64,000 bases of DNA from Parcubacteria group bacterium Athens0714_12 (GTDB lineage: Bacteria > Patescibacteriota > Patescibacteriia > UBA2591 > VMGY01), in the NCBI GenBank assembly GCA_007378955.1, contig VMGY01000007.1:8644-72643 (forward strand), in the 5' to 3' direction. Position 1 is the first letter of the stretch. Every line of letters starts with the position of its first letter. Under the pieces are notes generated by a model, which saw only the letters and a list, made by a program, of their open reading frames with translations, was not told the origin of the DNA and did no database searches. Both the position numbers and the translations under genes were made by a program. Of the stretch, positions 4,159 to 64,000 are shown piece after piece.

Positions 4159-4737
4159 ATGATATTATTTAATTATATGGATATGTTTGAAATAACTATT
4201 TGCGGGCGCGGCGGCCAAGGGTCAAAATTGGCAGCCCAAATTTTAGCCGAAGCGGCGCTGGAAGACGGAAAATACAGCCAGGCTTTTTCCCAATACGGGC
4301 CGGAAAGAACAGGCGCGCCGGTTACCAGCTACGCGAGAATTTCCAATCAGCCGATTTTGACGCATCAGCCGATTATAAAGCCCAACGCGGTTTTGATTTT
4401 AGATTCAAGTTTGTTGAAAGATTTGAATTTTAATAATGACGAAGTTTTGATTATTAATATTTGCCCTAATATAAAATTAGAAAAATTAAAAAATAAAACT
4501 TACAAGATAGACGCTTCTGACATTGCTTTAAAAATTTTAGGCAAGGACTTGCCGAATGTCGCCATGCTGGGAGCTTTGATAAAAATAACCGATTTATTGA
4601 AACTGCCTTCTTTGGAGAAAAGAATAAAAGAATATTTTGCCAAAAAATATAACGACAAAATGGCGGAACAAAATATTAAAGCGTTGCAAGAAGGTTATAA
4701 AACAATTTTATGCCCGGTAGTACAATTTCGAAAATAA
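4159..4737 (+). CDS. porG: pyruvate:ferredoxin oxidoreductase gamma subunit; the C-terminus is extended by 7 codons that read into the inserted element (native end predicted ...KTILC*)
   Basis: ICGRGGQG nucleotide-binding motif, PorG-like length; start uncertain (M at 4159, 4177 or 4183). Confidence 0.8.
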   Translation: MILFNYMDMFEITICGRGGQGSKLAAQILAEAALEDGKYSQAFSQYGPERTGAPVTSYARISNQPILTHQPIIKPNAVLILDSSLLKDLNFNNDEVLIINICPNIKLEKLKNKTYKIDASDIALKILGKDLPNVAMLGALIKITDLLKLPSLEKRIKEYFAKKYNDKMAEQNIKALQEGYKTILCPVVQFRK

Positions 4738-5061
4738 TTGTTAAACAAAAATTCGTCGCATATTACTGGGTTTACATTTTAGAAAGTGTAAACGATAAAA
4801 AAAGATATATAGGATTCGCTACTGATATCAAAAAAAGAATTAGAGAGCATAATAGCGGCATGGTTGTTTCCACAAATTATAGAAAACCGTTAAAATTGAT
4901 TTACGCCGAATTATGTTTAAACCAGAAAGATGCGAGAAGAAGAGAAAATTATTTTAAGAGAACTGGCGGTCGAAGATTTTTAGCCAAAAGACTAAAAGAG
5001 TATTATAAAATAAATAACAATTTTGAATAATAAATAATTCGAAGTTGTACTACCGGGTATG
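4709..5061 (+). mobile_element. small TIR-bounded element (4713-5057, 345 bp) carrying one GIY-YIG ORF, flanked by a duplicated TATG (4709-4712 and 5058-5061). It sits exactly at the porG stop / porD start overlap
   Basis: 20-bp terminal inverted repeats cccggtagtacaatttcgaa / ttcgaagttgtactaccggg (19/20). Removing the element restores an overlapping ...TTATGTTAAAA junction (porG TAA overlapping porD ATG). Confidence 0.75.
4710..5030 (+). CDS. stand-alone GIY-YIG nuclease domain protein (YhbQ/COG2827-like), encoded inside the TIR element; its start codon is the duplicated target ATG
   Basis: 106 aa; YYWVYILES...KRYIGFATDIKKRIREHN...R...N motif order typical of the GIY-YIG catalytic domain. 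Confidence 0.75.
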   Translation: MPGSTISKIIVKQKFVAYYWVYILESVNDKKRYIGFATDIKKRIREHNSGMVVSTNYRKPLKLIYAELCLNQKDARRRENYFKRTGGRRFLAKRLKEYYKINNNFE

Positions 5062-5340
5062 TTAAAATCGTCATCACAAATTCCATTGGGAGGCAATATT
5101 ATAAAGCCGGGTAATTCATCTGAATATAAAACCGGCAATTGGAAAACTTTTTCCCCGGTTTGGGACAAAGATAAATGCGCCCAATGTTTGATTTGTCCCG
5201 TGAATTGCCCGGAAAATTGCATTCCCGTGAAAGAGGGCAAGCGCCTTGAAACTAATTTTGATTTTTGCAAAGGTTGCGGAATATGCAGCCAAGTTTGTCC
5301 ATTCGGAGCGATACATATGAAAAAGTGCCAGACTTCTTAA
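5059..5340 (+). CDS. porD: pyruvate:ferredoxin oxidoreductase delta subunit (2x[4Fe-4S] ferredoxin)
   Basis: 93 aa; CAQCLICPVNCP and CKGCGICSQVCP motifs; start ATG supplied by the TATG at the element's right end. Confidence 0.85.
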   Translation: MLKSSSQIPLGGNIIKPGNSSEYKTGNWKTFSPVWDKDKCAQCLICPVNCPENCIPVKEGKRLETNFDFCKGCGICSQVCPFGAIHMKKCQTS

Positions 5341-7585: not shown

Positions 7586-7665
7586 TTTTAATTTTTTTTA
7601 TTTACTGTTTATTAAAAAGTTGTAAATTGCCATCGCCATGCTGGTGAGTCATGAGTTCATAAATT

Positions 7666-7700
7666 TTTAGTTATAAGTTATTGGTTGTAAGTTGTAAGTT
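7666..7700 (+). repeat. GTTRTAAGTT short tandem motif (gttataagtt attg gttgtaagtt gtaagtt) adjacent to tRNA-Lys
   Basis: Copies of the same motif family at 7785-7820, 26061-26092, 29171-29203 (reverse) and 57511-57548 (reverse). Confidence 0.6.
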
Positions 7701-7779: not shown

Positions 7780-7784
7780 TAAAA

Positions 7785-7820
7785 ATTTAGTTGTAGGTTG
7801 TTGGTTGTAAGTTGTAAGTT
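7785..7820 (+). repeat. GTTGTAAGTT short tandem motif adjacent to tRNA-Arg
   Basis: ttagttgtaggttgttggttgtaagttgtaagtt. Confidence 0.6.
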
Positions 7821-7901: not shown

Positions 7902-8088
7902 GTAAAATCATTTTTGTATTTTTTATCGCGTTTTGAAAAGTTTATCTCAATTCTACGGTGTTTTGGGCTTATTGTCAATAATTTTCGCGTGCGAAATTAA
8001 TTTTTATTAAATCAAAAAGAATAGTTAAAAAAGACCCTTAAGCGGGCCTTTTTTAGTTTTTAAAAACAAATTCGGCGTTATAATTACC

Positions 8089-8156
8089 TTGAATTACGAA
8101 ATAGAGTGACCCCGAAAGAGGAGGGGGTTTGTGAAAAAACGCGTTTCGTAATTCAA
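8089..8156. repeat. inverted repeat ttgaattacgaaa ... tttcgtaattcaa (13-bp arms, 42-nt spacer); member of a family with a second, larger copy at 48608-48740
   Basis: Read directly; lies between the tRNA cluster and the 3' end of pilT. Confidence 0.55.
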
Positions 8157-8186
8157 AATAATTAAGTTTCGTCGATTTATAAAAAT

Positions 8187-15579: not shown

Positions 15580-17325
15580 ATGAAAGAATCAAAATTAAAA
15601 AAATATCAGCAGAAAAGAAAATTTGAAATCACGCCGGAGCCGGAAGGAAAGATAGAAAAAAGCGAATTAAAAAGGTTTGTCGTCCATAAACACCAAGCTC
15701 GGCATTTGCACTATGATTTTCGTCTGGAAATGGAGGGTGTCTTAAAATCTTGGGCCGTGCCCAAAGGAGTGCCGGAGAAGCCAAATGTAAAAAGACTTGC
15801 CATTGAAGTAGAAAATCATCCGGTTTGTTTGGCTCCTTTTACAAAAGTTAATGCCCCGGGAGGCGAAAAAAGTATTAGAAAAAATTTTTCTAAAATTTTT
15901 TCTTATAATTTTCAAAATAGGAAAGTAGAATCTAAAAAAATAACAGCTTTTTCTAAAAGAGAAATAAATAATGATGAAATTACTTTATATTTTCATCAGG
16001 GAAAACCATTAAAAAAATTGTGTTGTACCCTGAATCATGAAATATTTGCTCCTCAAGGTAAAAAACAAGCATTTCAACTTAAAAAAGATGATTTTATTTT
16101 TATTTTAAAAGAGACATTTCAAAAAAGGAAGAAGGAGTTACTTTTAGGTATGCTTTTGGGAGATGCGGGATTAGAAAGCAACGGTTCTTACAGTAACACA
16201 GCCATTGTTTCTTTTACCCACTCTATTTCTCAAAGAGATTATTTACTTACAAAATGCAGACTGCTTAATTTAAAATTTCATTTTCAGAATTATCCTTCAA
16301 AAATACAAAGAATTAAAAATTATACTGCCTACTTTAAACCATCAATCAGGGCGGTGAGTAAGACTTACCCTTTTCTTTATGATCTTTATCTACTTTGTTA
16401 TAAAAACGGAAGAAAAACTCTTACTAAAGAATGGCTAAATCAATTAAGTGAAGTTTCTCTGGCTTATTTTTATCTCGACGACGGCAGTTTATTAAAAGAT
16501 AAAAATAAAATGAACATTCATGCTATAGAGCTATCTACCCAAGGATTTACAAAGAAAGAACAGTTATTACTTAAAGAAGTGATAGAAAAAAAATTTGGTC
16601 TTAAGACTAATATATATCGAATAAATAGTGGAAGCGGTTGGAGGTTAAGAATTTCTAGCGTAAAAAAATTTTTTTCTTTAATTTCCCCATGGATTCCTTT
16701 AAAAATTATGGATTATAAGATAGGTAAGCATTGTCCTGTTTGTGGAAATTCAGTCCCTGGTTTTAAAAATCATTTTTGTTCTTATTGTTTGTTGAATTAT
16801 TTAAGAAAATTAAAATATCCTTCTTATGCCGATTATTGTAGGTTGAGGTATTATGAGAAAAGAGGTGGCGTTGCCCCAAAAACTTTTCAGAATTATTTTG
16901 GAAGTTGGGCTAACGCCATTAAATTAGCAAAAGAAAATAAATTAGTAGTTTCAGGCCAGAGGGGGAGTAAAGTAAAAGAAATTAAAAATGAAAGAATGAA
17001 AAAGGATATAGGAATAGCCAAAATCAGAGAGATTAGAAAAAAATGGAATCCCGAAAGAAAGTATGCACATGATATTCAAGTTAAGGATAATCATAATTTT
17101 TTTGCAAATGGAGTTTTGGTAGGAAATTCTTACATTGATTTTTTTGGCGTTATTCCCGAAGGTTCTTACGGCGCCGGCAACGTGGAAATTTGGGACAAGG
17201 GAGAATATGAATTATTGGAGAAAAGCAAAAAAACGATTAAATTCAGATTAAAGGGCGAAAAATTAAAAGGCGAATATATTTTGGTTTTAATGAAAGAAAA
17301 TAACTGGCTGATTTATAAATTGTAA
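15580..17325 (+). CDS. stand-alone LigD-type 3'-phosphoesterase (PE) domain protein interrupted by an intein (host exteins 82 + 65 aa)
   Basis: Extein N: RFVVHKHQARHLHYDFRLEMEGVLKSWAVPKG...VENHPV; extein C: SYIDFFGVIPEGSYGAGNVEIWDKGEY - LigD PE domain signatures. Confidence 0.75.
   Translation: MKESKLKKYQQKRKFEITPEPEGKIEKSELKRFVVHKHQARHLHYDFRLEMEGVLKSWAVPKGVPEKPNVKRLAIEVENHPVCLAPFTKVNAPGGEKSIRKNFSKIFSYNFQNRKVESKKITAFSKREINNDEITLYFHQGKPLKKLCCTLNHEIFAPQGKKQAFQLKKDDFIFILKETFQKRKKELLLGMLLGDAGLESNGSYSNTAIVSFTHSISQRDYLLTKCRLLNLKFHFQNYPSKIQRIKNYTAYFKPSIRAVSKTYPFLYDLYLLCYKNGRKTLTKEWLNQLSEVSLAYFYLDDGSLLKDKNKMNIHAIELSTQGFTKKEQLLLKEVIEKKFGLKTNIYRINSGSGWRLRISSVKKFFSLISPWIPLKIMDYKIGKHCPVCGNSVPGFKNHFCSYCLLNYLRKLKYPSYADYCRLRYYEKRGGVAPKTFQNYFGSWANAIKLAKENKLVVSGQRGSKVKEIKNERMKKDIGIAKIREIRKKWNPERKYAHDIQVKDNHNFFANGVLVGNSYIDFFGVIPEGSYGAGNVEIWDKGEYELLEKSKKTIKFRLKGEKLKGEYILVLMKENNWLIYKL
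15826..17127 (+). mobile_element. intein (434 aa) with LAGLIDADG homing endonuclease domain and a C-terminal Cys-rich zinc-finger-like segment
   Basis: Begins at Cys (CLAPF), ends ...DNHNFFANGVLVGN followed by +1 Ser; two LAGLIDADG motifs (LLGMLLGDAGLES, LAYFYLDDGSL); in-frame within the PE-domain gene. Confidence 0.8.
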
Positions 17326-25099: not shown

Positions 25100-26058
25100 A
25101 AAAAAAAGAACAAATGCTGGGGAATAAAATCGCCAGCGAACCGGAGATTATAAAACTGACTCATTCCGTCGCGCCGGGAGAAAAAATAAAATTTAATCTT
25201 ACTTTGAAACCGCCTGCCGCAGGAACAAAAATAGAAAAAATTTATTTACTTTTTTGGGGAAATAAAGCTTGGCTGCCGTCCACCGAAGGAAAAATTTTAA
25301 TGAATGTCAGAAGAGACAATTATGCCGCGGCAATGAGTTTTTCCAATTTGCCGGAAAAAATTTGGGCGAAGGACATTATTCCCGGACAAATTAAATTTAA
25401 AAATGTCGGCTTAAAGTCTTGGATTGTGGATAAATTAAAATTAAAGATTTTTGACAGCGGCTATAAGTCGTCTCTCTTTAAAAATTTCGATTGGCCGGAT
25501 AAAGACGGCAGTTTTAAAGCAATTTCTGATTTAAAAGAAATCAAGCCGGATGAAGAAATAACTTTTAATTTTAATTTAAAAGCGCCGACTTTGCCGTGGC
25601 TGTTTAAAAATATTTTTAAATTAGAGATAGAAGGAGTAGAAAAAATGGTGGACGCGGAGGCGGAAAATTTTATTCAAGTGGAACCGGATTTAAAAGCGGG
25701 ATTAACCACCCATTCCTTTCCACACGCGATGCTTAATGTTTGGCGGCCATCGGTGATGCTGAAATTCAAGAACACAGGCAGAAAAGCGTGGGATAAAAAT
25801 TTAATTTTGAAGTCTTTCAGCAGTGATAATAAAACCAGCCCTTTTTATCATTCTTCTTGGGAAAGTTCCATGATAATAGAGAAATTAGACGGAAAAGTGG
25901 AGCCCGGGCAAGAAGTCACTTTTATTTTTAAATTAAAAGCGCCCAGCAAGGCGAATCTTTATCAGCATAAATTCAGCTTATTCCAAGGCAATGAAAGAGT
26001 TTATATTAATGAAAAACCGGAATTGATATTTTCTACCCGCGTTGACTCGGCTCAATAG
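25087..26058 (+). pseudogene. repeat-domain region (about 100-aa Ig-like repeats with KFKNxG..W motif) in a different frame from the upstream amidase. It has no ATG (TTG only) and no signal peptide. It is probably one gene with 24113-25099 split by a frameshift (true or sequencing error)
   Basis: 13-nt overlap; the repeat motif already begins in the amidase ORF tail (LEYKNEGNTAAMKFIW); an A8 homopolymer sits at 25100-25107 just after the stop. Confidence 0.5.
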
Positions 26059-26060
26059 AA

Positions 26061-26092
26061 GTTATAAGTTATTAGTTGTAAGTTATGAGTTG
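26061..26092 (+). repeat. GTTATAAGTT-type short tandem motif immediately upstream of tRNA-Ser
   Basis: gaagttataagttattagttgtaagttatgagtt. Confidence 0.6.
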
Positions 26093-27802: not shown

Positions 27803-29170
27803 ATGAAAAGTATAAAATTCAAAATTATCTTTTTAGGTTTGGTAACGATAATGTTTTTAACTTCTGGTTTTGGCTGTAAATGGACCGAAAGCAGAATTAA
27901 GCAAACCTTGAAGCCGGTTAATTTGGTTATTTGGCGGGTTTGGGACGACGAGGATACTTTTAATGATATTCTGACCGCTTATAAACAAATTCACCCCAAT
28001 GTTACTTTTACTTATAAAAATCTTCGTTATGAAGAATATGAAAATGAGCTTTTAAAAGCCTGGGCTAAAGACGAGGGTCCTGATATTTTTTCTATTCCCA
28101 ATGCTTGGCTTAGAAAATATCAGGATTATATTGTTCCTTTGCCGGAAAAAATCACTCTTTCTTATAAAGAAACCTCTGGTTTTTTAAAAAAAGAAGTAAA
28201 GATTACGCAAAAAACTAAAAAAAGCCTATCTTTAAAAGATTTAAAAAGTAATTTTATAGACGTGGTTTATGATGACGCGGTTATTAGCGATAAAATTTAT
28301 GGTTTGCCGTTAAGCGTAGATACTTTGGCTTTATTTTATAATCGCGACCTTTTAAATCAAGCTCAAATTTCCGAAGCGCCGCAGAATTGGAATCAATTTA
28401 TTGAAGCGATAAAAAAATTAACCGTCCAAGATTATTTAGGCAATATAATTCAATCCGGCGCCGCTTTAGGAACAGCGAGCAATGTAAACAGAAACGTTGA
28501 TATTTTATCTTGCCTGATGTTGCAAACTGGAACAAAAATGGAAGACGGAAATAAAGTTGTTTTTGATAAGCATTCTGAAATATATAAAGATTATTTTCCC
28601 GGCGAAAGAGCTTTGGAATTTTATACCGATTTTGCCAATCCGAGCAAAGAAACATATACTTGGAATGAAAAAATGCCTGATTCTTTGCAAGCTTTTATTG
28701 AAGGGAAAACAGCTTTTTTCTTTGGCTATTCTTATCATCTTCTCCAAATCCAACAACAAGCGCCTAAGTTGAATTTTGACGTAACATTAATGCCTCAAAT
28801 TGAAAGCAGTGGCTACAAAGTAAATTATGCCAATTATTGGATAGAAACTGCCGCGAAAAAAACAAAATTTTCTAATGAGGCTTGGGATTTCATCCAGTTC
28901 GCGGCTTCGCAAGAGCAAGCGGACAAATTTCTTAGCCGCGCCAAAAAGCCGACCGCTTTAAGAAGTTTAATTGAAAAGCAATCAGAAGATTTTGATTTAA
29001 TGTCTTTTGCCAAACAGTTGCTTTCCGCTAAAAGCTGGTATCATGGCAAAGATTTTAACGCCGTGGAAGAAATTTTTAAAGAAATGATTAATCAAACTCT
29101 CAAGGGAGAATTATCCGTGAAAGATATAGTTAAATTGGGAGTGCAAAAGGTTAATCAAACATACAAATAA
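27803..29170 (+). CDS. ABC transporter solute-binding lipoprotein (family 1, sugar type); no permease or ATPase genes adjacent
   Basis: Lipobox LTSGFGC; SBP_bac_1-like sequence; start ATG at 27803 chosen over the track's 27659. Confidence 0.65.
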   Translation: MKSIKFKIIFLGLVTIMFLTSGFGCKWTESRIKQTLKPVNLVIWRVWDDEDTFNDILTAYKQIHPNVTFTYKNLRYEEYENELLKAWAKDEGPDIFSIPNAWLRKYQDYIVPLPEKITLSYKETSGFLKKEVKITQKTKKSLSLKDLKSNFIDVVYDDAVISDKIYGLPLSVDTLALFYNRDLLNQAQISEAPQNWNQFIEAIKKLTVQDYLGNIIQSGAALGTASNVNRNVDILSCLMLQTGTKMEDGNKVVFDKHSEIYKDYFPGERALEFYTDFANPSKETYTWNEKMPDSLQAFIEGKTAFFFGYSYHLLQIQQQAPKLNFDVTLMPQIESSGYKVNYANYWIETAAKKTKFSNEAWDFIQFAASQEQADKFLSRAKKPTALRSLIEKQSEDFDLMSFAKQLLSAKSWYHGKDFNAVEEIFKEMINQTLKGELSVKDIVKLGVQKVNQTYK

Positions 29171-29203
29171 CCCATAACTGACAACTTACAACTTACAACT
29201 AAA
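29171..29203 (-). repeat. GTTGTAAGTT short tandem motif (reverse orientation: cccataactgacaacttacaacttacaactaaa)
   Basis: Same motif family as at the tRNA genes. Confidence 0.6.
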
Positions 29204-29710
29204 ATGACAAAAAAACTAAAAAATAAAAAAATTAAAATTATTTACTTTACTTTAAGTTTCTTATTATTTACTTTTTTATTTTTTAGCGCCGCGCCTATTT
29301 TTGCCCAGGAGCCGCAAGGAATTTTTTCCGACGTGCCTTGTTTTAGGCCGGCCGGGGAGTGCGTTAGCGCGCCCGGCGAACCTTCGCCATGCGAATGCGG
29401 TTTATGCGATTTTCTTTACGTTCTCCTTAAAGTCGCTAATTGGGGTTTAAACGGCATTGGCGCCTTAGCTTTGCTTTTTTTTGTCTTCGGCGGCCTTGTC
29501 TGGCTCACTTCCGCCGGCGATAAAAATCGCGTGGCCGCCGGCAAGAAAATTTTGACAGGAACCGCGCTAGGGATTATAATAATTTTAAGCGCTTATCTGG
29601 TTATAAATTTTACTATTTCCACTTTGACCGGAAAACCGGGACAATTTTATATTAAAAGCGACCAATTAAAAGAATGGTATAATGTCTGTGAAATTAAACC
29701 AAATCAATAA
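29204..29710 (+). CDS. TrbC/VirB2-like small membrane (pilin-like) protein, paralog 1, with an extra Cys-rich insert
   Basis: Signal peptide, hydrophobic helix, conserved GGLVWLTSAGD motif, second TM helix. Confidence 0.5.
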   Translation: MTKKLKNKKIKIIYFTLSFLLFTFLFFSAAPIFAQEPQGIFSDVPCFRPAGECVSAPGEPSPCECGLCDFLYVLLKVANWGLNGIGALALLFFVFGGLVWLTSAGDKNRVAAGKKILTGTALGIIIILSAYLVINFTISTLTGKPGQFYIKSDQLKEWYNVCEIKPNQ

Positions 29711-30056
29711 AAATTTTCTAAAAAAAATTATTTCTTTAATTTTAATAATTATCTTTTTTAATTTGTTTCTTATTCAAATTGACGCCCAGGAAACCCTGCC
29801 AAATCCCATTGGCACGACGGATATTAAAGAATTAATTGCTAGAATTATTACTACTATTTTAGGATTGACCGGCGCGATTGCTTTGGTTTTGTTTGTTTAT
29901 GGCGGGTTGGTTTGGATGACTTCCGGCGGCAGTTCGGAAAAGATAAAAGAGGGAAAAAATATTTTAGTTTGGGCAATATTGGGATTAGTGGTGATTTTTA
30001 CCAGTTATATTATTCTTAATTTTGTTTTTGAAACTTTAGAAAAGGTGACAAAATAA
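29682..30056 (+). CDS. TrbC/VirB2-like small membrane protein, paralog 2
   Basis: GGLVWMTSGGSSEKIKEGKNIL motif followed by a TM helix. Confidence 0.5.
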   Translation: MSVKLNQINKNFLKKIISLILIIIFFNLFLIQIDAQETLPNPIGTTDIKELIARIITTILGLTGAIALVLFVYGGLVWMTSGGSSEKIKEGKNILVWAILGLVVIFTSYIILNFVFETLEKVTK

Positions 30057-30126
30057 ATAATAATTTGCGCGAATTCACATTGAATTTATAGAATGTTGCA
30101 ATTTTTATGAGAGGGGGTGAAAAAAA

Positions 30127-30495
30127 ATGACAAAAAAATATTTATTAGCTGGAATTTTAAGCTTAAGTTTAATGGTTGTGTTAGCTGTGCCCGTGTTAGT
30201 CGGAGCCCAGGATATCGTTGATTGGGATAAAGTGGACGTTGGCTTGAGTAGAAGAGATTTAATTGAGGTAGTTAACGCTGTGATTAGAATTGTTTTAAGC
30301 TTTTTGGGAATAATCGCGGTGGTGATTATTTTGATTGGCGGATTTAATTGGATGACTTCCGGCGGCAGTCAAGAGAAGATAGATGGGGCGAGAAAGGCAA
30401 TAAGCGCGGGCGCGATAGGCTTGGTAATCATATTTACGGCTTACGCGATTGCTTACTTTGTTATTGAACAATTGGCCAGTGTAACCGCTGAATAA
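30127..30495 (+). CDS. TrbC/VirB2-like small membrane protein, paralog 3
   Basis: GGFNWMTSGGSQEKIDGARKAI motif followed by a TM helix; RBS gagggggtg. Confidence 0.5.
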   Translation: MTKKYLLAGILSLSLMVVLAVPVLVGAQDIVDWDKVDVGLSRRDLIEVVNAVIRIVLSFLGIIAVVIILIGGFNWMTSGGSQEKIDGARKAISAGAIGLVIIFTAYAIAYFVIEQLASVTAE

Positions 30496-30504
30496 AATTA
30501 ATTT

Positions 30505-30921
30505 ATGAAGAAATTTTTATCTTTTTGGCTGTATAAAGTATTTTTAATTATACTTTTTACGGGTTTAATTTTGCCGGTTTTCGCGGCTGATGACCATGGT
30601 TTGACGGATATGGCGGAAAAAACAGGATTATATACTTCAAGGACTGATGTATATCTTTTGGTGAGCCAGATAATAAATTTGATTTTGAGTTTTTTGGGTT
30701 TAATAACTGTCATTATAATATTTGTGGCAGGTTTTCAGTGGCTCACTTCCGGCGGAAATTCCGAAACAATTCAAAAGGCCAAAGGGAATATTACCAATGC
30801 CGTAATAGGACTGATAATCATTTTATCCGCTTTAAGTATCAGTATTTTTATAACCGATCAGATAAAAATAGCCACCGGAGTGGAAGGTTCGCGAGGCGGC
30901 AGAGGAATATTGCAGCAATAA
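30505..30921 (+). CDS. TrbC/VirB2-like small membrane protein, paralog 4
   Basis: AGFQWLTSGGNSETIQKAKGNI motif followed by a TM helix. Confidence 0.5.
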   Translation: MKKFLSFWLYKVFLIILFTGLILPVFAADDHGLTDMAEKTGLYTSRTDVYLLVSQIINLILSFLGLITVIIIFVAGFQWLTSGGNSETIQKAKGNITNAVIGLIIILSALSISIFITDQIKIATGVEGSRGGRGILQQ

Positions 30922-33277: not shown

Positions 33278-33595
33278 ATGTTATTGTCAATCCCGCACCT
33301 TTTAAGCACTAAGCTATGCATTGGGTTTATTATCAAAAGTAAAAAGAATAATTTATTATATATTGGCAGCACTCTTAATTTAGAAAAAAGATTTAAAGAG
33401 TTTTGTAACCATCTCAAAGAACATAATGAAGGGAAATCATTGTCAACTAAAAAATATAAACCTTGGGTTTTAGTTTATGCCGAATGTTATTTTTTAAAAG
33501 AAGATGCTTTATCTCGTGAACGAAATCTAAAATATTTTGGAAAAATTTACGCCCAACTTAAAAGAAGAATAAAAAATAGCATTCAGGGTGCTTAA
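33278..33595 (+). CDS. stand-alone GIY-YIG nuclease domain protein (YhbQ/COG2827-like), second copy; start and stop codons lie within the element termini
   Basis: 105 aa; IGFIIKSKKNNLLYIGSTLNLEKRFKEH...R...N GIY-YIG motif pattern; about 25% identity to the 4710-5030 protein. Confidence 0.7.
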   Translation: MLLSIPHLLSTKLCIGFIIKSKKNNLLYIGSTLNLEKRFKEFCNHLKEHNEGKSLSTKKYKPWVLVYAECYFLKEDALSRERNLKYFGKIYAQLKRRIKNSIQGA

Positions 33596-48582: not shown

Positions 48583-48607
48583 TTGGCCGCCTTTAAAATT
48601 TATTACT

Positions 48608-48740
48608 TTGAATTACGAAACACTTAAAACTAAACCGTCATTGCGAGCGAGCCAGCAAGTATGCGAAGCAGGAATTTCGTCAAAAGCGAAATTATTTAAT
48701 AGGGCGAGCAATGACACCTTTGGAGCGTTTCGTAATTCAA
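48608..48740. repeat. about 130-bp composite palindromic element: outer arms ttgaattacgaaacac / gcgtttcgtaattcaa, inner arms ccgtcattgcgagcgagcc / gggcgagcaatgacacc, central hairpin gaatttcg...cgaaatt
   Basis: Nested inverted repeats read directly; shares outer arms with 8089-8156 and the GTCATTGCGAG motif with the 58102/62037/63937 repeats. Confidence 0.6.
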
Positions 48741-48777
48741 GGTTATTAAGAAATTAAAATTAATTAATTTTATCAAT

Positions 48778-57548: not shown

Positions 57549-57998
57549 TTAAAATTGTTTCATTTTTTGTTTTATTTTTTTGTCTAAATCTCGTTTTTTA
57601 ATGAACTCTTTTTTATTCCACTTTTTTCTGCCCTTGGCTAAGCCGATTTCAATCTTTATCAGTCCGTTTTTAGTATATACTTTTAAAGGCAGGGCTGTCA
57701 AGCCTTTCTGTTGCAGACTGCCGATTAAAGAAGCGATTTCCCGTTTATGAAGCAGGAGCTTTTTGTTTTTTAGCGGATTGTAATTTTTTTGAGCCGTAAA
57801 AGCCGGCGGGTAAGGCGCGATATGGCACTTAATGAGCCAAGCTTCGCGCCCAATAAGTTCAACATAACTGCCTTGAAGGTTTATTCCGCTCATTTTGGCG
57901 GATTTAACCTCTGGTCCGGAAAGAACCAGCCCGGCCTCATATTTTTTTAAGATTTCGTAATCAAAATAAGCTCGCTTGTTTTCAGCTAAAATAGGCAT
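57549..57998 (-). CDS. smpB: SsrA-binding protein SmpB
   Basis: MPILAENKRAYFDYEILKKYEAGLVLSGPEVKS typical SmpB N-terminus; start set at ATG 57998 (the track's ORF extends to 58106 through repeat DNA). Confidence 0.88.
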   Translation of the reverse strand: MPILAENKRAYFDYEILKKYEAGLVLSGPEVKSAKMSGINLQGSYVELIGREAWLIKCHIAPYPPAFTAQKNYNPLKNKKLLLHKREIASLIGSLQQKGLTALPLKVYTKNGLIKIEIGLAKGRKKWNKKEFIKKRDLDKKIKQKMKQF

Positions 57999-58101
57999 AA
58001 TTTTTATAAATTTTTTGAATCGCGAAACATTTAAAATCAATCTGTCATCGCGAGGAGCTTCCGGATTGCTTCCTGCCTCACCCCAGCGCAGGCGTTTCGT
58101 T

Positions 58102-58195
58102 CGCAATGACAGGGTAAAAGATTGTCATTGCGAGGAGCCCAGCAGGGCGACGCGGCAATCCCGTTCGTTAAGCCGCGGGATTGCTTCGGCTGACG
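58102..58195. repeat. left copy of a perfect 94-bp inverted repeat (partner 62037-62130), itself built of two hairpins (cgcaatgaca...tgtcattgcg and gcaatcccg...cgggattgc)
   Basis: 94/94 identity with the reverse complement of 62037-62130, verified base by base; related partial units at 58021-58101, 48637-48717 and 63937-64000. Confidence 0.9.
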
Positions 58196-60446: not shown

Positions 60447-62018
60447 ATGGAAGAAAATAAAAGAAAAAACAATTCAAAAAATTTTTATTTTAAAACCTTG
60501 AAAGAAGAGGAAATTTTAACATTGAGAGATTTCCAAGGTGATAGAAATAAGCGTATTTTATTGTCCGAAATTTACCGATACACCCCTTACTCCCAAGAGT
60601 ACCTTTCTTTGAGGGCGAGGCAGGGAAAATTGAAAGCGGTTAAACTGGGAAGGGATTGGATGACCACGGTTAATTGGATGAGGGATTATTTGGACGGAGT
60701 TGATAATAATAAAAATATTGATAGCAAAACGCGGAGCGATAAAAAAATAGTTTTTCCATCTTTCAATAAAGTTTTTTTAGGGTATGGCGTTTTGGCGTTA
60801 ATCGTTTTTTGCCTCGTCTCTTACTCGGCGTTTTATTGGCGAAATTGGGCGCCGCAAGTAAAAAATAATTTTTTATCTTTGAGTTCGGCGGCGGAAAGAA
60901 ATTTTACGGACATATCAAAAATTTTTAAATCCGATTATCGCGATAAAACTGAAAAAATAGGAATGATGATTGTTGGCTCTTTAAAGCCAATGAAAAAATT
61001 TCCAAAAGTTTTATCAGAGGAAAGCGATTTGGCGAAAAATAAAATAATAACATTTAAAAAAAATATATTTTCTTTTTCCCAAAAATTAACAAAAGGAATT
61101 AAAGAAGAAATTAAAAAATCAATCGTAAAAGTAAAAGAAGAAAATTTAAAAGCTCGCTGCGCGGTTTTGCGAGCCGTAAATTTTAACTATAGAAAAATAA
61201 AGCAAATTATGGTTTCCAGCCAAAGAACCATTCGGCAAGTTGGCAATTTTGCGGACAATAGCCGATTAGCGGTTAGGGACAATTTTTTTAAAGCCGCGGC
61301 AAGATTATTTTTTTCTTTGGACAAGAGTTCAGAAATTTTAATTCTTGCCGGTAAAAATGCAAATCAATTTTTGGGAAATGGGACGGCAAATTTAATCTTC
61401 GCGGGCGAAAGAGGAACAAAAAATTTATTTTCCGCGTTAGATAATGGAGCAGAGGTTTTAATTTTTACTGTTGAAAAAGGAAAACAAAGTTTAGATAAAG
61501 GATTGGCAATTTTAGTTTCAATTAGCAGAAGCGGAACAAAAAGTTTGTTTTTCGCTTTAGACAGGGGGTCGGAAAGTTTAATTTCTTTTGGCGGGAATAT
61601 TCGTTGTTCCGTGAATGATAAAGGATATATGATTCAAGGTTCGGTAAAAAAAGGATGGTCAATTTCTAATAGTTTTCTGAGTAGAGCATGGAATAAATTC
61701 AGCGATAAGTTAAGCGATGGCTATTTAACCCTTTTGAATTATTTAATTCCGGAAAGAACTTTATACGGCTATCCTTCGCTGATTGCGAAATCGGAAAATG
61801 GCGGCGCGGCTGAAAACGGTATGGTTATTTTTCCTTTAATGGGGCAGGAGGGCATTTCGCGGAATAAATATCTTTTAGCCAAGATAGAAAAAGCTTTCAG
61901 CGACGAGGTGATATTAAAACCGTCAGAACAAAAAGGAGTGGGAATTGTGGAGCCGACCGAGCCGGCTGTTCCAGGCGAAAAATATCTTTATATGATGGTG
62001 CCGATTAATGAAAAATAA
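60447..62018 (+). CDS. membrane protein with N-terminal excisionase-family (HTH_17-like) DNA-binding domain, one TM helix and a C-terminal region of short tandem peptide repeats
   Basis: YSQEYLSLRARQGKLKAVKLGRDWMTTVNWMRDYL resembles the Xis/AlpA-type HTH; repeats ...GTKNLFSALDNGAEVLIF / GTKSLFFALDRGSESLISF. Confidence 0.45.
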   Translation: MEENKRKNNSKNFYFKTLKEEEILTLRDFQGDRNKRILLSEIYRYTPYSQEYLSLRARQGKLKAVKLGRDWMTTVNWMRDYLDGVDNNKNIDSKTRSDKKIVFPSFNKVFLGYGVLALIVFCLVSYSAFYWRNWAPQVKNNFLSLSSAAERNFTDISKIFKSDYRDKTEKIGMMIVGSLKPMKKFPKVLSEESDLAKNKIITFKKNIFSFSQKLTKGIKEEIKKSIVKVKEENLKARCAVLRAVNFNYRKIKQIMVSSQRTIRQVGNFADNSRLAVRDNFFKAAARLFFSLDKSSEILILAGKNANQFLGNGTANLIFAGERGTKNLFSALDNGAEVLIFTVEKGKQSLDKGLAILVSISRSGTKSLFFALDRGSESLISFGGNIRCSVNDKGYMIQGSVKKGWSISNSFLSRAWNKFSDKLSDGYLTLLNYLIPERTLYGYPSLIAKSENGGAAENGMVIFPLMGQEGISRNKYLLAKIEKAFSDEVILKPSEQKGVGIVEPTEPAVPGEKYLYMMVPINEK

Positions 62019-62036
62019 AATAGTGTCATCGCGAGG

Positions 62037-62130
62037 CGTCAGCCGAAGCAATCCCGCGGCTTAACGAACGGGATTGCCGCGTCGCCCTGCTGGGCTCCTC
62101 GCAATGACAATCTTTTACCCTGTCATTGCG
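62037..62130. repeat. right copy of the perfect 94-bp inverted repeat (partner 58102-58195)
   Basis: See the left copy. Confidence 0.9.
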
Positions 62131-62169
62131 GCAAGAAGCAATCCCGAAGATAAATAATTTATAAAAATA

Positions 62170-63918
62170 ATGAGACAGAAAATATTAGTAATAGTATTAA
62201 TAATTTACCTGCTCTTTCCAATTCATTTAATTTTGGCCGAAATGACCAGCAGTAATTATAAAATAGAAGTTGATTCCCTGAATTTCAGCGGCGCCGAGCT
62301 TGACGCGGGCGATATTTATAAAATGAGTTCTACTTTGGGAGAAGTGGCAGTAGGTTATGGAAGTTCTGGTTACGCGATTTTTTCCGGCTACAGATATATG
62401 GTCAATGTATATTCTAATCCGGTTGAAGAAGCGGGAGCCGTTCCATCGGTTCCCGGGTCGGGACCGTTATCTCCGGAAACCATCCCCCCGCTTATTTCAG
62501 AAATTAAATATTCCAGCCCTGATAGCGAAACTATTATTATTGAATGGGAAACTAACGAGCCGACTACCTCGGAATTGGATTTCGGCCTGACACCGGAATA
62601 TGAATTGGGGAGATTGAAATCAAGGCCGGAAGATTTAACAAAAAAGCATAAAATTATTATTAAAGATTTAAAACCGGACACAAAATATTATTTCCGGCCG
62701 CGGGCGAAAGATTTGCAGGGCAACGAAACTCTAAGTAAAGGATTTATTTACGATACGCCGGATAATATCGCGCCAGCCAATGTAAGCTCTTTAAAAGCAA
62801 GATCAAATGATAAACAAATAACTTTGCGATGGATTAATCCTTTTGATGAAGATTTCGCGGGCGTAAAAATCCAGAGAAGTTTGGAATATTTTCCCTTGTC
62901 CGTTGACGAAGGCGAAACGGTTTATCAGGGCGAGGCAATGAGTTTTATAGATAAATATTTGGAGAACAACAGAAAATATTATTACACGATTTTTAGCTAT
63001 GACGGCAATAATAATTTTTCATCAGGCGCGATTATCAGCGCCGCGCCGCAAAGCCGGTATGTCCCGCCTGTCGCTCCGCCTGAAATTCCGCCAGGAGTCA
63101 TTCCTTCTGAAGTGGTCCCATTTTTACCGCCAGAATTTGCTCCGCCTATTCCGGAAGAAAATATAGAAATTTTGGATTTTAGCGATATTATATCTTTTGA
63201 AATGGCAAAAGGGACATTAAAGATTGAGCCGGATGAAAAAAATAAAATAAAAATTTTGCCTAATGTCGCCTTAAATCTTTTCATCGCCAAAGAAAAATTA
63301 TCGCCTTTTTTGAAAAGCATTATTGCGACTGTCGGGGAATCTTCTTATTTATTAAAAATTAATCAAGAAAAAAGCGTTTATGAAGTTTCCTTTATTACGC
63401 CCGGAAATGTCGGCAAATACGCTTTAAACGCTTTGGTTTTAATTTATAAAGACGGAAAAATTCAAGTGGCAAAAGGCGAGTTGGAAGTGGAAGAACCGGG
63501 TTATGTCTGCCGGCAATCAACGGCCAAAAGACTTCCCGGCGCCGAAGTAACGCTTTATCATTTTAATCAAGAAAAAAACGTTTGGGAAAAATGGCCAGCC
63601 AGCCAATATTTTCAAGTTAATCCGGAAATCACTGACAATAAAGGAGAATATATTTTTATGGTTAACCCCGGTGAATATTATTTAACAGTTTCAAAAGAAG
63701 GATATGATTTTAAAAAAACAGAAATTTTTGAAGCGAAAAATATAATCAATCAAAAAGTCGGTTTAGAGCCAATTCCGTTTTTTTCCAAAATTAAATCATA
63801 TTTTGACTGGCAGCCCATTATTGATTTTTTCGGCAACAGCGCAAGAGTCCTAATCGCGATAATAGTTTTTATAATAATTTTTTTGCTATTTAAATTAATC
63901 CCGTCGTGGAAATCATAA
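62170..63918 (+). CDS. large surface protein: signal peptide, two FN3-like domains, Pro-rich linker, C-terminal Ig/CarboxypepD_reg-like domain and C-terminal TM anchor
   Basis: Domain-like motifs (TIIIEWETNEPTTSELDFGLT...YYFRPRAKD; ITLRWINPFDEDFAGVKIQR...YYYTIFSYDGNNN), PPVAPPEIPP linker, C-terminal hydrophobic helix. Confidence 0.5.
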   Translation: MRQKILVIVLIIYLLFPIHLILAEMTSSNYKIEVDSLNFSGAELDAGDIYKMSSTLGEVAVGYGSSGYAIFSGYRYMVNVYSNPVEEAGAVPSVPGSGPLSPETIPPLISEIKYSSPDSETIIIEWETNEPTTSELDFGLTPEYELGRLKSRPEDLTKKHKIIIKDLKPDTKYYFRPRAKDLQGNETLSKGFIYDTPDNIAPANVSSLKARSNDKQITLRWINPFDEDFAGVKIQRSLEYFPLSVDEGETVYQGEAMSFIDKYLENNRKYYYTIFSYDGNNNFSSGAIISAAPQSRYVPPVAPPEIPPGVIPSEVVPFLPPEFAPPIPEENIEILDFSDIISFEMAKGTLKIEPDEKNKIKILPNVALNLFIAKEKLSPFLKSIIATVGESSYLLKINQEKSVYEVSFITPGNVGKYALNALVLIYKDGKIQVAKGELEVEEPGYVCRQSTAKRLPGAEVTLYHFNQEKNVWEKWPASQYFQVNPEITDNKGEYIFMVNPGEYYLTVSKEGYDFKKTEIFEAKNIINQKVGLEPIPFFSKIKSYFDWQPIIDFFGNSARVLIAIIVFIIIFLLFKLIPSWKS

Positions 63919-63936
63919 AAAAGTTCATTTCCCTGT

Positions 63937-64000
63937 CATTGCGAGCGAGGTCGCCAGTAGGCGGCCGACGAAGCAATCCCGTTGTCTATCGCGTCCCCGC
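63937..64000. repeat. another unit of the GTCATTGCGAG ... GAAGCAATCCC repeat family (runs to the window end)
   Basis: cctgtcattgcgagcgaggtcgccagtaggcggccgacgaagcaatcccg. Confidence 0.6.

Follow-up and report, generated by a model that had tools for sequence, protein, structure and literature searches.

Palindromic repeats in a Parcubacteria genome as probable nested mobile DNA: CGTC-type REP units and a MITE that carries them

Results

The window, by which we mean the whole 64-kb stretch of Parcubacteria group bacterium Athens0714_12 DNA that was analysed, holds about 60 open reading frames, including smpB and a 582-aa gene at 62170, each preceded by palindromic repeats. The presence of dispersed palindromic repeats at four sites, always intergenic, had been proposed in a preceding sequence-only reading, and the proposal proved real: the pattern GTCATTGCGAG, with at most one mismatch, was counted seven times in the window against 0.41 expected, a number reached in 0 of 100 shuffles, with sites at 48637, 58044, 58100 (minus strand), 58124, 62025, 62098 (minus strand) and 63935, and all four repeat sites (4/4) are intergenic. 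These sites are confined to the last 16 kb of the 64 kb. The features, of which the terminal repeats, target-site duplications and partner head were read directly from the sequence and the innermost hairpin from sequence and fold, are as follows.

8081..8164 (no strand): second MITE copy, without REP cargo; 40-nt unrelated core, fold z = -4.06; TAATTA at 8081-8086 and 8159-8164, inverted repeats at 8087-8102 and 8143-8158
48600..48605 (no strand): left target-site duplication TTATTA, the same hexamer standing after the right end
48606..48621 (plus): left terminal inverted repeat CTTTGAATTACGAAAC, 16 nt
48636..48717 (plus): decayed REP doublet forming the MITE core; covariance-model match E = 0.61; middle stem of the fold
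48636-48671 (plus): forward unit of the decayed doublet, reading cGTCATTGCGAG…GAAGCA
48672..48693 (no strand): innermost small hairpin, GAATTTCG-tcaaaag-CGAAATT, in the spacer of the decayed doublet
48705-48717 (minus): head of the inverted partner of the decayed doublet, GTCATTGC
48727..48742 (plus): right terminal inverted repeat GTTTCGTAATTCAAGG, 16 nt
48743..48748 (no strand): right target-site duplication TTATTA
58013..58028 (plus): degenerate left inverted repeat TTTTGAATCGCGAAAC of a third MITE
58044..58111 (minus): REP doublet D1, rearranged; covariance-model match E = 0.012; complete unit 58063-58111 on the minus strand, partner reduced to its head at 58044-58058
58102..58195 (no strand): left arm of a 94-nt perfect inverted repeat; 17-nt AT-rich leader to the ATG of smpB
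58123..58195 (plus): REP doublet D2; forward unit 58123-58163; covariance-model match E = 4.4e-7
62024..62109 (no strand): complete REP doublet; units 62024-62056 (plus) and 62069-62109 (minus), E = 3.2e-5 and 4.4e-7
62037..62130 (no strand): right arm of the 94-nt perfect inverted repeat; homologous leader to the ATG of the 582-aa gene at 62170
62121..62146 (plus): REP unit homologous to D1; covariance-model match E = 1.1e-4
63934..64000 (plus): REP unit 63934-63981 and the spacer to the next unit; covariance-model match E = 2.6e-7

Folded as single-stranded DNA, 48608-48740 forms the three-level nested palindrome that had been described for it (-24 kcal/mol, z = -4.35; none of 200 shuffles folded as well). 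The outer motif TTGAATTACGAAA occurs four times, as the two inverted pairs 8089/8156 and 48608/48740, and the claim that this second pair also stands alone at 8089-8156 was confirmed, the copy there being a MITE without REP cargo. A degenerate third left arm, TTGAATCGCGAAAC, lies at 58015, and its right arm, ATTTCGTAATTCAAGG, falls within 38 nt that are absent after 58195 in the window but were found in two further assemblies of this sequence, L001 and L123, so that the nesting claimed at 58 kb is complete in those assemblies and lacks its right outer arm here. A clean target-site duplication was looked for around this degenerate 58-kb composite and was not demonstrable. MITE length in the window is 72-137 nt. 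The inner repeats had been called frequently nested in the second pair; the nesting is real but concerns just two of the four REP sites, and because the MITE frame is absent at the other two, hitch-hiking on a MITE is not the sole route by which REP units are placed.

The inner unit has the pattern (C/T)GTC-ATTGC-GA-(variable stem-loop)-GAA-GCAAT-CC, which may also be written GTCATTGCGAG…GAAGCAATCC. Its (C/T)GTC tag is unpaired, the ATTGC/GCAAT stem is 5 bp long, the GA/GAA internal loop is asymmetric and conserved, a further stem-loop varies in sequence but remains paired, and the tail is CC(A/C)G. According to the covariance-model alignments, the tag of the window units is TGTC six times and CGTC once, and their tail is CCCG. 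In the units of other genomes the base before GTC is C in 120/167 and T in 42/167, and the tail reads CCAG in 102/167, while the ATTGC…GCAAT stem is invariant throughout all pattern matches and the window units. The variable segment forms 3.19 Watson-Crick pairs against 0.69 ± 0.10 in shuffles and takes many different stems, of 1-16 pairs, with a G-C closing pair in 81 of 86 and mostly a GNA triloop; the apex GCGNAGC, an extraordinarily stable DNA mini-hairpin (PMC13037366), was seen in 91/167 units. Neighbouring units in other genomes form inverted doublets with outward tags in 91 of 97 pairs, with spacers mostly of 20-30 nt. The inner units are accordingly classed, from their sequence, as REP-type palindromic elements of the CGTC/TGTC-tagged kind, fitting most of the published description.

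The doublets of the window differ in completeness. The inverted partner of D2 is truncated here and its head, CCTCGCAATGAC, is present in L001, and alignment and fold identify the doublet at 62024..62109 as an inverted copy of D2. Compared with L001 and L002, the unit at 62121..62146 lacks 25 internal nt, and the 63935 element runs beyond the window end as two direct tandem units, the second of which is L001 11834-11880.

It had been suggested that a covariance model be built and that the idea be given up if the copies were confined to the window or fell inside coding regions elsewhere. A model made solely from units of other phyla recovered the window units at E = 2.6e-7 to 0.012, with the decayed 48636 unit at E = 0.61, and found nothing else significant over the 64 kb; the motif occurs widely outside the window, and elements related to it are strongly intergenic elsewhere. 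In an exact-pattern scan of one genome per species, the hosts of the REP core among the matches listed were Proteobacteria, Bacteroidota, Chloroflexi, Cyanobacteria and other phyla, with host loci of 30-72% GC, and viral contigs too carry the motif pair near letter for letter. The REP units are not lineage-specific, contrary to what had been supposed for the repeats as a whole, and the outer MITE is itself spread over several Parcubacteria lineages. As the outer letters of the unit are near-invariant across phyla and base compositions, a sequence-specific protein acting on a DNA hairpin, together with horizontal spread, may be inferred.

Paired arms of the outer palindrome were found at more than 120 loci in groundwater contigs, with several copies per locus in some Campbellbacteria contigs, and a span between arm cores of 82-132 nt. 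The hairpin centre, 40-125 nt long, is highly variable. Over 126 metagenome copies the end consensus reads C-(T/C)-(T/G)-T-GAATTACGAAA-(C/T), and conservation is limited to these ends. Among 127 copies, exact flanking direct repeats of 7 nt were present in 33, of 6 nt in 22 and of 8 nt in 4, and a further 12 have a 7-nt repeat with one mismatch, against a mean of 0.45 and a maximum of 3 in a permuted-flank control; the target-site duplication is 6-7 bp long with a T…A preference and differs between copies, and about 43% of copies are without a clean one. An insertion polymorphism was also found, in that L366 has both target copies with a 10-nt remnant, TAATTCATAG, at a site where the homologous site of L289 holds the element. 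Open reading frames of at least 120 aa cover 6% of the copies versus 70% of random placements, and the genes beside the copies are housekeeping genes. In the five contigs with a phylum-level protein source name the hosts were all Parcubacteria/Patescibacteria, namely Ryan-, Campbell- and Wildermuthbacteria and a Patescibacteria group bacterium. A metagenome scan with the left arm plus its inner flank gave no matches, nor did a scan of viral contigs for the arm pair. Judged by its ends and target-site duplications, the outer palindrome CTTTGAATTACGAAAC…GTTTCGTAATTCAAGG is a MITE present in several, at least four, Parcubacteria lineages. The sequence-only reading was therefore right in calling the repeats REP/MITE-like structured elements, but the one family that it described merges two different ones.

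GTCAT…ATGAC doublets, of at least four subfamilies, were found in 31 of 123 distinct MITE copies, where the REP cargo is centred with a linker of about 11 nt on each side. In pairs of composites the linkers and cargo are 85-96% identical and the flanks unrelated, and since whole composites, linkers included, thus recur at unrelated sites, the whole frame must have moved, at least afterwards. When REP sites were picked without selection, the majority lay within the same MITE frame and one (L359) within a different palindrome. The outer pair has target-site duplications and occurs also without REP units or with other cargos in many organisms, which marks it as a transposable frame and not a mere target.

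In relatives the spacer between smpB and GT is 77-89 nt long and holds no repeat or composite, and a REP search over 82 kb from five related Parcubacteria, covering syntenic loci, gave no matches, in keeping with a gain in this lineage; SmpB served as the synteny anchor, the neighbouring 523-aa protein having given no close relatives that could be used. GC-rich islands in these related loci were considered as REPs and proved to be tRNAs and ordinary hairpins. The window is identical to L001 over 11.7 kb except for the 38- and 25-nt indels, both of which lie within repeats and could be assembly artefacts at hairpins instead of population variants. The 94-nt perfect inverted repeat belongs to a larger segmental inverted duplication, at least 150 nt long, which also takes in the 17-nt leader. 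The suggestion that the repeats act as recombination substrates thereby gains indirect support, from this duplication and from the fact that assemblies otherwise identical differ at the repeats.

A mobilising enzyme was sought in several places. No transposase of any kind, Y1_Tnp included, was found among the approximately 60 open reading frames of the window, and no integrase; no transposase, Y1 or HUH gene was found in the open reading frames between REP clusters of other genomes; and about 750 kb of MITE-bearing loci yielded no autonomous partner sharing the inverted repeats of the MITE, the open reading frames beside orphan MITE arms being housekeeping genes. An IS630-like transposase fragment in L340 was considered as a partner and set aside, as it adjoins only a chance one-mismatch arm.

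Discussion

Taken as a whole, these results favour a model in which two nested classes of non-coding mobile DNA are present, REP units and a MITE carrying them, with the composite most likely moved as a unit, a reading to which we assign a probability of roughly 65%. In this model the MITE inserts into AT-rich intergenic DNA and generates a 6-7-bp target-site duplication, its core consisting of interchangeable hairpin DNA that in about one quarter of copies is a centred REP doublet. The element at 48606-48742 is a MITE of this kind whose cargo is a decayed REP doublet, and the 58-kb composite is one MITE with two doublets inside, part of which is present at the 62-kb site as an inverted segmental copy. 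The composite of MITE and REP was most likely mobilised in trans as a single unit, by a transposase recognising the inverted repeats; as no autonomous partner was found, trans mobilisation is deduced from the inverted repeats, the target-site duplications and the copy pattern. The long hairpins would then cause local deletions and duplications, as the indels and the segmental duplication partly show, and possibly inversion. Effects at the RNA level, for example on the stability of polycistronic transcripts around the elements, would be secondary.

A different route to the same arrangement is that REP doublets reach MITE frames independently, inserted at the apex of a long hairpin by a hairpin- or single-strand-specific enzyme of the HUH/Y1 type, as for REPINs, such that nesting would reflect target choice and not hitch-hiking. 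This is compatible with movement of the frame, and we consider it a credible contender with the odds somewhat against it. Doublets of at least four REP subfamilies are found at one and the same central place within the frame, a REP doublet sits within the unrelated palindrome of L359, and apex motifs typical of DNA, the GNA triloops, would suit a single-strand DNA mechanism; moreover, within the families described in the published survey, CGTC-1 dimers of H. neapolitanus always lie in a 41-bp palindrome and GTAG-15 dimers of A. variabilis in another (PMC3733652). However, the recurrence of composites with their linkers at unrelated sites, at 85-96% identity, calls for movement of the entire frame at least at a later stage, and neither the window nor the regions between REP clusters elsewhere hold a Y1/HUH gene, nor did the CGTC survey find one (PMC3733652). 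Of the two accounts, we retain movement of the MITE-plus-REP composite as a unit.

Two further explanations were considered. The elements might be primarily functional RNA structures kept by host selection, which would protect or stabilise the 3' ends of polycistronic mRNAs or serve as their processing sites, attenuators or terminators. At three of the four sites the neighbouring genes are co-directional, and the repeats sit 6-26 nt past a stop codon with 24-66 nt left to the following start, which makes their transcription probable; the hairpins are strong, and REPs of E. coli are known to affect mRNA stability (cited in PMC3733652). However, the units are not followed by T-runs, not one of the 29 terminator-like sites between 47500 and 64000 falls on a repeat unit and these local sites differ from the repeats in kind, and one composite lies between divergent gene starts, so that the terminator role suggested by the sequence-only reading was not upheld. 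The doublets are in addition symmetric and found in either orientation, the syntenic spacers of relatives are wholly without elements, and insertion is shown by target-site duplications. Nor is there an Rfam family match: over the window only tmRNA and tRNAs reached the gathering threshold, nothing appeared at relaxed thresholds, and the best sub-threshold match on the composite scored 24 bits against a cut-off of 70. Host-selected RNA function is accordingly an improbable primary explanation. Even further from the data is the view that the outer palindrome is an attC- or cassette-type site-specific recombination site instead of a transposon, which we hold to be very improbable. Its conserved ends around a highly variable centre, and the fact that some Campbellbacteria contigs hold several copies between the genes of one locus, would fit such a site. 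However, the 6-8-nt flanking direct repeats vary from copy to copy, the ends …ACGAAAC / GTTTCGT… do not fit the RYYYAAC/GTTRRRY core sites, the window has no integrase, and the neighbours are housekeeping genes.

The nested-mobility model invites comparison with known systems. Correia/NEMIS elements of Neisseria are bacterial MITEs, short, non-coding, with inverted repeats, a target-site duplication and many intergenic copies, and are presumably mobilised in trans; in the MITE described here, by contrast, conservation across several Parcubacteria lineages is limited to about 16 nt at each end, the core is freely exchangeable hairpin DNA, and the target-site duplication measures 6-7 bp with a T…A preference. 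With REPINs the inner doublets share two inverted REPs with a short spacer that form one long hairpin, the replicating unit of REPINs, and a dispersed, intergenic distribution (Bertels & Rainey 2011, PMC3116915), but the tag here is (C/T)GTC and not GTAG, and no RAYT/Y1 gene was seen either in the window or between REP clusters of other genomes. For REPIN/RAYT systems, mainly vertical inheritance is described (10.1101/2022.05.22.493013), whereas the ATTGC-type core is common to distant phyla. The closest likeness is to the CGTC-tagged REPs (Di Nocera, De Gregorio & Rocco 2013), which are presented as having no known transposase and include dRS3 of Neisseria and RPE-4/RPE-6 of Rickettsia (PMC3733652). 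As far as that survey describes them, they have in common with the units here an unpaired CGTC/TGTC tag at one end, the A-T, T-A stem opening, a short CC(A) tail, mostly inverted dimers, a multi-phylum distribution, occasional nesting in other palindromes and no associated transposase; the published tag may vary to TGTC or CCTC, and the tail consensus is CCA (PMC3733652). The differences, within the same descriptions, are that the core here, ATTGCGAG…GAAGCAAT, yields a VIASEAKQS-like peptide, whereas the types listed for intragenic copies are VIPAKAGI, VIPGLDPGIH and VIPWLDHGI, and that a 5-bp stem with a GA/GAA loop and a free second stem replaces, in a comparison with CGTC-1 to CGTC-4 by description, a stem of 8-9 bp with a loop of 4-5 nt, the loop length differing in CGTC-1 of Bradyrhizobium (PMC3733652). 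The hosts here add Patescibacteria and phyla that the lists of that survey do not name (PMC3733652). The nested dimers of H. neapolitanus (CGTC-1, in the 41-bp palindrome) and A. variabilis (GTAG-15) likewise have a REP doublet centred in an unrelated inverted-repeat pair; in the account given of them they differ in that the outer pair here has target-site duplications, other cargos and many host organisms (PMC3733652). The arrangement as a whole is ordinary in kind, but the MITE family itself appears to be undescribed. No paper linking MITEs with CPR/Patescibacteria was found in the literature searched, and searches there with sequence strings from either motif yielded nothing but unrelated primer or siRNA matches.

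Genomes of CPR/Patescibacteria are tiny and usually regarded as poor in repeats. A single window of such a genome nevertheless holds two mobile repeat families, a MITE chassis and a REP core common to distant phyla. Since the hairpins are the sites at which otherwise identical assemblies differ, they are likely sources of breakpoints and mis-assemblies in MAGs. The conserved ends and free cargo of the MITE offer a simple marker of strain-level variation in Parcubacteria and a lead to its transposase. It is tempting to go further and propose that the orphan CGTC-type REP doublets of Parcubacteria are exchangeable cargo of the MITE chassis and that the MITE transposase is the missing mobiliser of the REPs, a proposal that we regard as speculative and rather unlikely; in a genome of about 1 Mb with few candidate mobilising enzymes, the long-standing question of what moves CGTC-type REPs becomes directly testable. 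The chassis could also be a vehicle that takes hairpin repeats between lineages. The arrangement of REP as cargo thus provides a testable route of REP mobility and suggests how orphan repeats may spread.

Distribution of the Repeats in the Window

The window has a GC content of ~35%, and within it GTCATTGCGAG, allowing at most one mismatch, occurs 7 times against an expectation of 0.41, a frequency that is real and far above chance. Inverted pairs of TTGAATTACGAAA are found twice, at 8089/8156 and 48608/48740, with a degenerate third left arm at 58015. The inner, REP-type palindromic unit is found at the following sites.

48636-48717, decayed doublet, intergenic
58044-58195, two doublets, the first one rearranged, intergenic
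62024-62146, includes the doublet 62024-62109, intergenic
63934 to the window end, two direct tandem units, intergenic

The sequence-only reading had described the units as always intergenic and the copy at 48608-48740 as a three-level nested hairpin; indeed, all four unit sites lie in intergenic spacers, and a single-stranded DNA fold bears out the nested hairpin (z = -4.35). Its proposal that the repeats may act as transcription terminators finds no such backing, as a terminator-like signature coincides with none of the units.

Genes of the window include type IV pilus genes, ligA, gatCA, lgt, infC, rplT, smpB and tmRNA. In NCBI, proteins identical to window proteins bear the name Parcubacteria group bacterium Athens1014_10. 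Four T4SS_pilin-like paralogues stand in tandem at 29204-30921, with their 5' segments repeated, and short-period repeats of the GTTGTAAGTTGTAAGTT type adjoin tRNA genes (7660-7700, 7780-7820, 26051-26091 and, in reverse complement, 29169-29203), similar runs of AATTACAAATTAC following a tRNA in a relative (L126, 12100-12300). Two small free-standing GIY-YIG nuclease ORFs are present (4710-5030 and 33278-33595), the former wedged in a pyruvate:ferredoxin oxidoreductase operon, with the gamma-subunit gene (4159-4737) on one side and the ferredoxin-type delta-subunit gene (5059-5340) on the other; such an ORF also occurs in another relative (L128, 572-826). At 15580-17325, an intein with a LAGLIDADG homing-endonuclease domain splits a LigD_N-type 3'-phosphoesterase gene.

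The Inner Unit Is a REP Found in Many Phyla

Comparison of the copies in the window with those in L001, an ENA assembly of the same organism, gives the order of the unit as (C/T)GTC, ATTGC, GA, a variable segment beginning with G and ending with C, GAA, GCAAT and CCCG. Two opposed units with their GTC ends outermost form one long hairpin, for example at 62024-62109 and at 5900-5976 of L001. When one genome per species was scanned for exact GTCATTGCGAG-N(4-34)-GAAGCAATCC, at least 120 loci matched. The hosts among the matches listed include many Bradyrhizobium, sphingomonads and other Alpha-, Gamma- and Deltaproteobacteria (Legionellales and Rickettsiales are also listed, as is Helicobacter rodentium), Bacteroidota (Pedobacter, Chryseobacterium, Hymenobacter, Prevotellaceae, Tannerella, Rikenella), Chloroflexi, Nostoc, Melainabacteria, Zixibacteria, Armatimonadetes, Ignavibacteriota and Spirochaetaceae. 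Viral contigs scanned with this pattern matched as well, their number again being a lower bound. The GC content of the host loci ranges from 30 to 72%, and the GC-rich core letters are unchanged throughout. With the exact core in so many phyla and in viral contigs, the inner unit is not the lineage-specific repeat that it had been taken for. A covariance model built from 17 units of 33 nt, Parcubacteria units left out, recovered the units of the window, with E values from 2.6e-7 to 0.012 for most and of 0.61 for the decayed one at 48636; with filters off, it gave no match at E < 0.5 in the 64 kb besides REP units. In the 82 kb covered from five Parcubacteria relatives, it recovered no unit.

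Among 167 units from the exact-pattern genome scan, GTC is preceded by C in 120 and by T in 42, a CCAG tail is present in 102, and a 27-mer, GTCATTGCGAGCGAAGCGAAGCAATCC, and a 33-mer, GTCATTGCGAGGAGCGAAGCGACGAAGCAATCC, are the commonest forms. Of 97 neighboring pairs, 91 form inverted doublets that carry their tags outward, separated for the most part by 20-30 nt. The variable segment forms a stem-loop that keeps its pairing while its sequence changes freely: counted from the ends inward, it holds 3.19 Watson-Crick pairs compared with 0.69 ± 0.10 in shuffles (maximum 0.93), and a G-C pair closes it in 81 of 86 distinct segments. The stems are diverse and unrelated (CCGC/GCGG, CCCC/GGGG, ACCAT/ATGGT and others), mostly capped by GNA triloops, and a GCGNAGC apex occurs in 91 of the 167 units; this "mini-hairpin" is extraordinarily stable when made of DNA, more so than in its RNA form (PMC13037366). 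Because the asymmetric GA/GAA loop is invariant, the outer letters are invariant at any composition, the inner stem covaries and the apex is typical of DNA, the simplest reading of the unit is that of a DNA hairpin that would be recognized by a sequence-specific protein.

Di Nocera et al. (2013; PMC3733652) define "CGTC-tagged REPs" by a terminal CGTC, often TGTC, tag, A-T pairs that open the stem and a short CCA tail; they are mostly inverted dimers, lack transposase association, are nested now and then within other palindromes (H. neapolitanus, A. variabilis) and are reported there from Proteobacteria (mainly the alpha division), Chlorobi, Bacteroidetes, Spirochaetes and Thermotogae. The present units share the tag, the A-T-first stem, the tail and the dimeric arrangement so described, but they depart from the stem and loop sizes stated there, and the peptides given there for intragenic copies of four CGTC families represent other sequence types. 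On this comparison by description and peptides, the units are filed as the same kind as the CGTC/TGTC-tagged REP superfamily, with no named family claimed. A full-text literature search with the unit sequence returned nothing relevant, and no Rfam family matched.

The Outer Palindrome Is a MITE

Metagenome contigs scanned for GAATTACGAAA…TTTCGTAATTC, the arms 51-111 nt apart, gave at least 120 loci with paired arms, many from 0.1-0.2 µm groundwater fractions. The ends of the element run four bases further on either side, as C-(T/C)-(T/G)-T, and the direct repeats found immediately beyond them change from one copy to the next. For 127 copies, these are exact 7-mers in 33, 6-mers in 22 and 8-mers in 4, with a 7-mer bearing one mismatch at 12 more, whereas permuted partners gave 0.45 exact 7-mers on average and at most 3. 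T-N5-A is favored in the duplicated target. Two MITE copies of the window have target-site duplications.

8081/8159, TAATTA, target-site duplication
48600/48743, TTATTA, target-site duplication

Only 6% of MITE copies fall under an ORF of 120 aa or more, compared with 70% of random placements. Exact-sequence neighbor proteins place the element in Candidatus Ryanbacteria, Campbellbacteria (twice), Wildermuthbacteria and a Patescibacteria group bacterium, so that lineage specificity fails for the outer palindrome too, its frame being present in several Parcubacteria lineages. At homologous sites, L289 (8976-9085) carries a full element and L366 (3592-3724) only TAATTCATAG between both target copies; this remnant is what deletion across a 6-nt TAATTC microhomology would leave, a footprint of MITE loss.

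REP Doublets as Cargo of the MITE Frame

Conservation of the MITE is limited to its ends, and what lies between them varies.

Core classes of 123 distinct MITE copies
GTCAT…ATGAC REP doublet, 31 copies
102-nt subfamily, many copies per locus, Campbellbacteria, 31 copies
Other cores, mostly palindromic, 57 copies
Single GTCAT or ATGAC only, 4 copies

REP doublets of at least four subfamilies occur in frames (ATTGC, the window type, 10; others ATTCC, ATCCC and ATTCT/ATCCT), centered with a linker of ~11 nt on either side. Composites are 85-96% identical over linkers and cargo in unrelated flanks, and therefore at least some composites moved as whole units. Among unselected ATTGC-type REP sites (model matches in MITE loci), four are located in the frame or cut within it, one lies in another palindrome and two are free. 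The 102-nt subfamily, GAATTACGAAACGCAAAAATTTAGGTCC…TAAATTTTTGCGTTTCGTAATTC, seen in the Campbellbacteria contigs L267, L289, L305 and L306, has an asymmetric conserved core and is found in either orientation, at up to five copies per ~10 kb. At 10170-10330 of L359, an ATTGC-type doublet sits within another inverted-repeat pair, AGACTGTAGAAAAA / TTTTTCTACAGTCT, a case suggesting a general tendency to nest in palindromes.

Variation and Duplication near smpB

The arrangement of smpB and a divergent glycosyltransferase gene is kept in relatives at 60-69% SmpB identity. In the two relatives read (69 and 64% identity), the spacer between these genes is AT-rich promoter DNA of 89 and 77 nt with no repeat; in the organism of the window it is 310-348 nt, a difference that points to gain of the repeats in this lineage. 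Compared base by base over 11.7 kb, the window and L001 are 100% identical save for two indels, both within repeat units: the window lacks 38 nt at 58195/58196, among them the right outer arm and the second doublet's head, and 25 nt at 62130/62131. A second ENA assembly of the organism, L123, has the longer spacing of L001, and a Logan contig of the organism, L002, supports the 25 nt. These indels are either true variation or hairpin-induced mis-assembly.

The perfect inverted repeat of 94 nt is the part left undeleted in a longer segmental duplication of the composite in inverted orientation. An AT-rich leader of 17 nt, AAA(A/T)AATTTATAAAAAT(T/A)ATG, is common to smpB (minus strand) and a 582-aa gene (plus strand), at 57976-58016 and 62147-62172; the duplication takes in this leader up to the ATG of either gene, and a promoter or leader may have been brought along by the repeat block. 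Between the inverted repeats sits a gene for a 523-aa protein (60447-62018), of which only the N-terminal ~60 residues (HTH_17-like) are shared. A search of 5.8 billion clusters found no full-length homolog besides itself, and the gene is absent at the corresponding position in relatives.

Discussion

Taken together, the repeats are best explained as nested selfish DNA, in which REP doublets of cross-phylum distribution are carried in, or inserted into, a Parcubacteria MITE frame. The initial description of a REP/MITE-like family was thus right as to kind, REP plus MITE, which is ordinary, and wrong in treating two nested families as a single lineage-specific one. This model proposes that the REP hairpins may have a protein partner acting at the DNA level, that the MITE frame may be mobilized in trans, and that REPs would hitch-hike with it. 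Transposase genes were found neither among the ORFs of the 64-kb window, nor between REP clusters of other genomes, nor adjoining orphan MITE arms. The literature searched contains no paper tying MITEs to CPR/Patescibacteria, nor the MITE arm sequence. Neither this MITE family nor the carriage of REPs as its cargo in ultra-small genomes appears to have been described, and together they provide a concrete handle on the mobilizer of orphan REPs.
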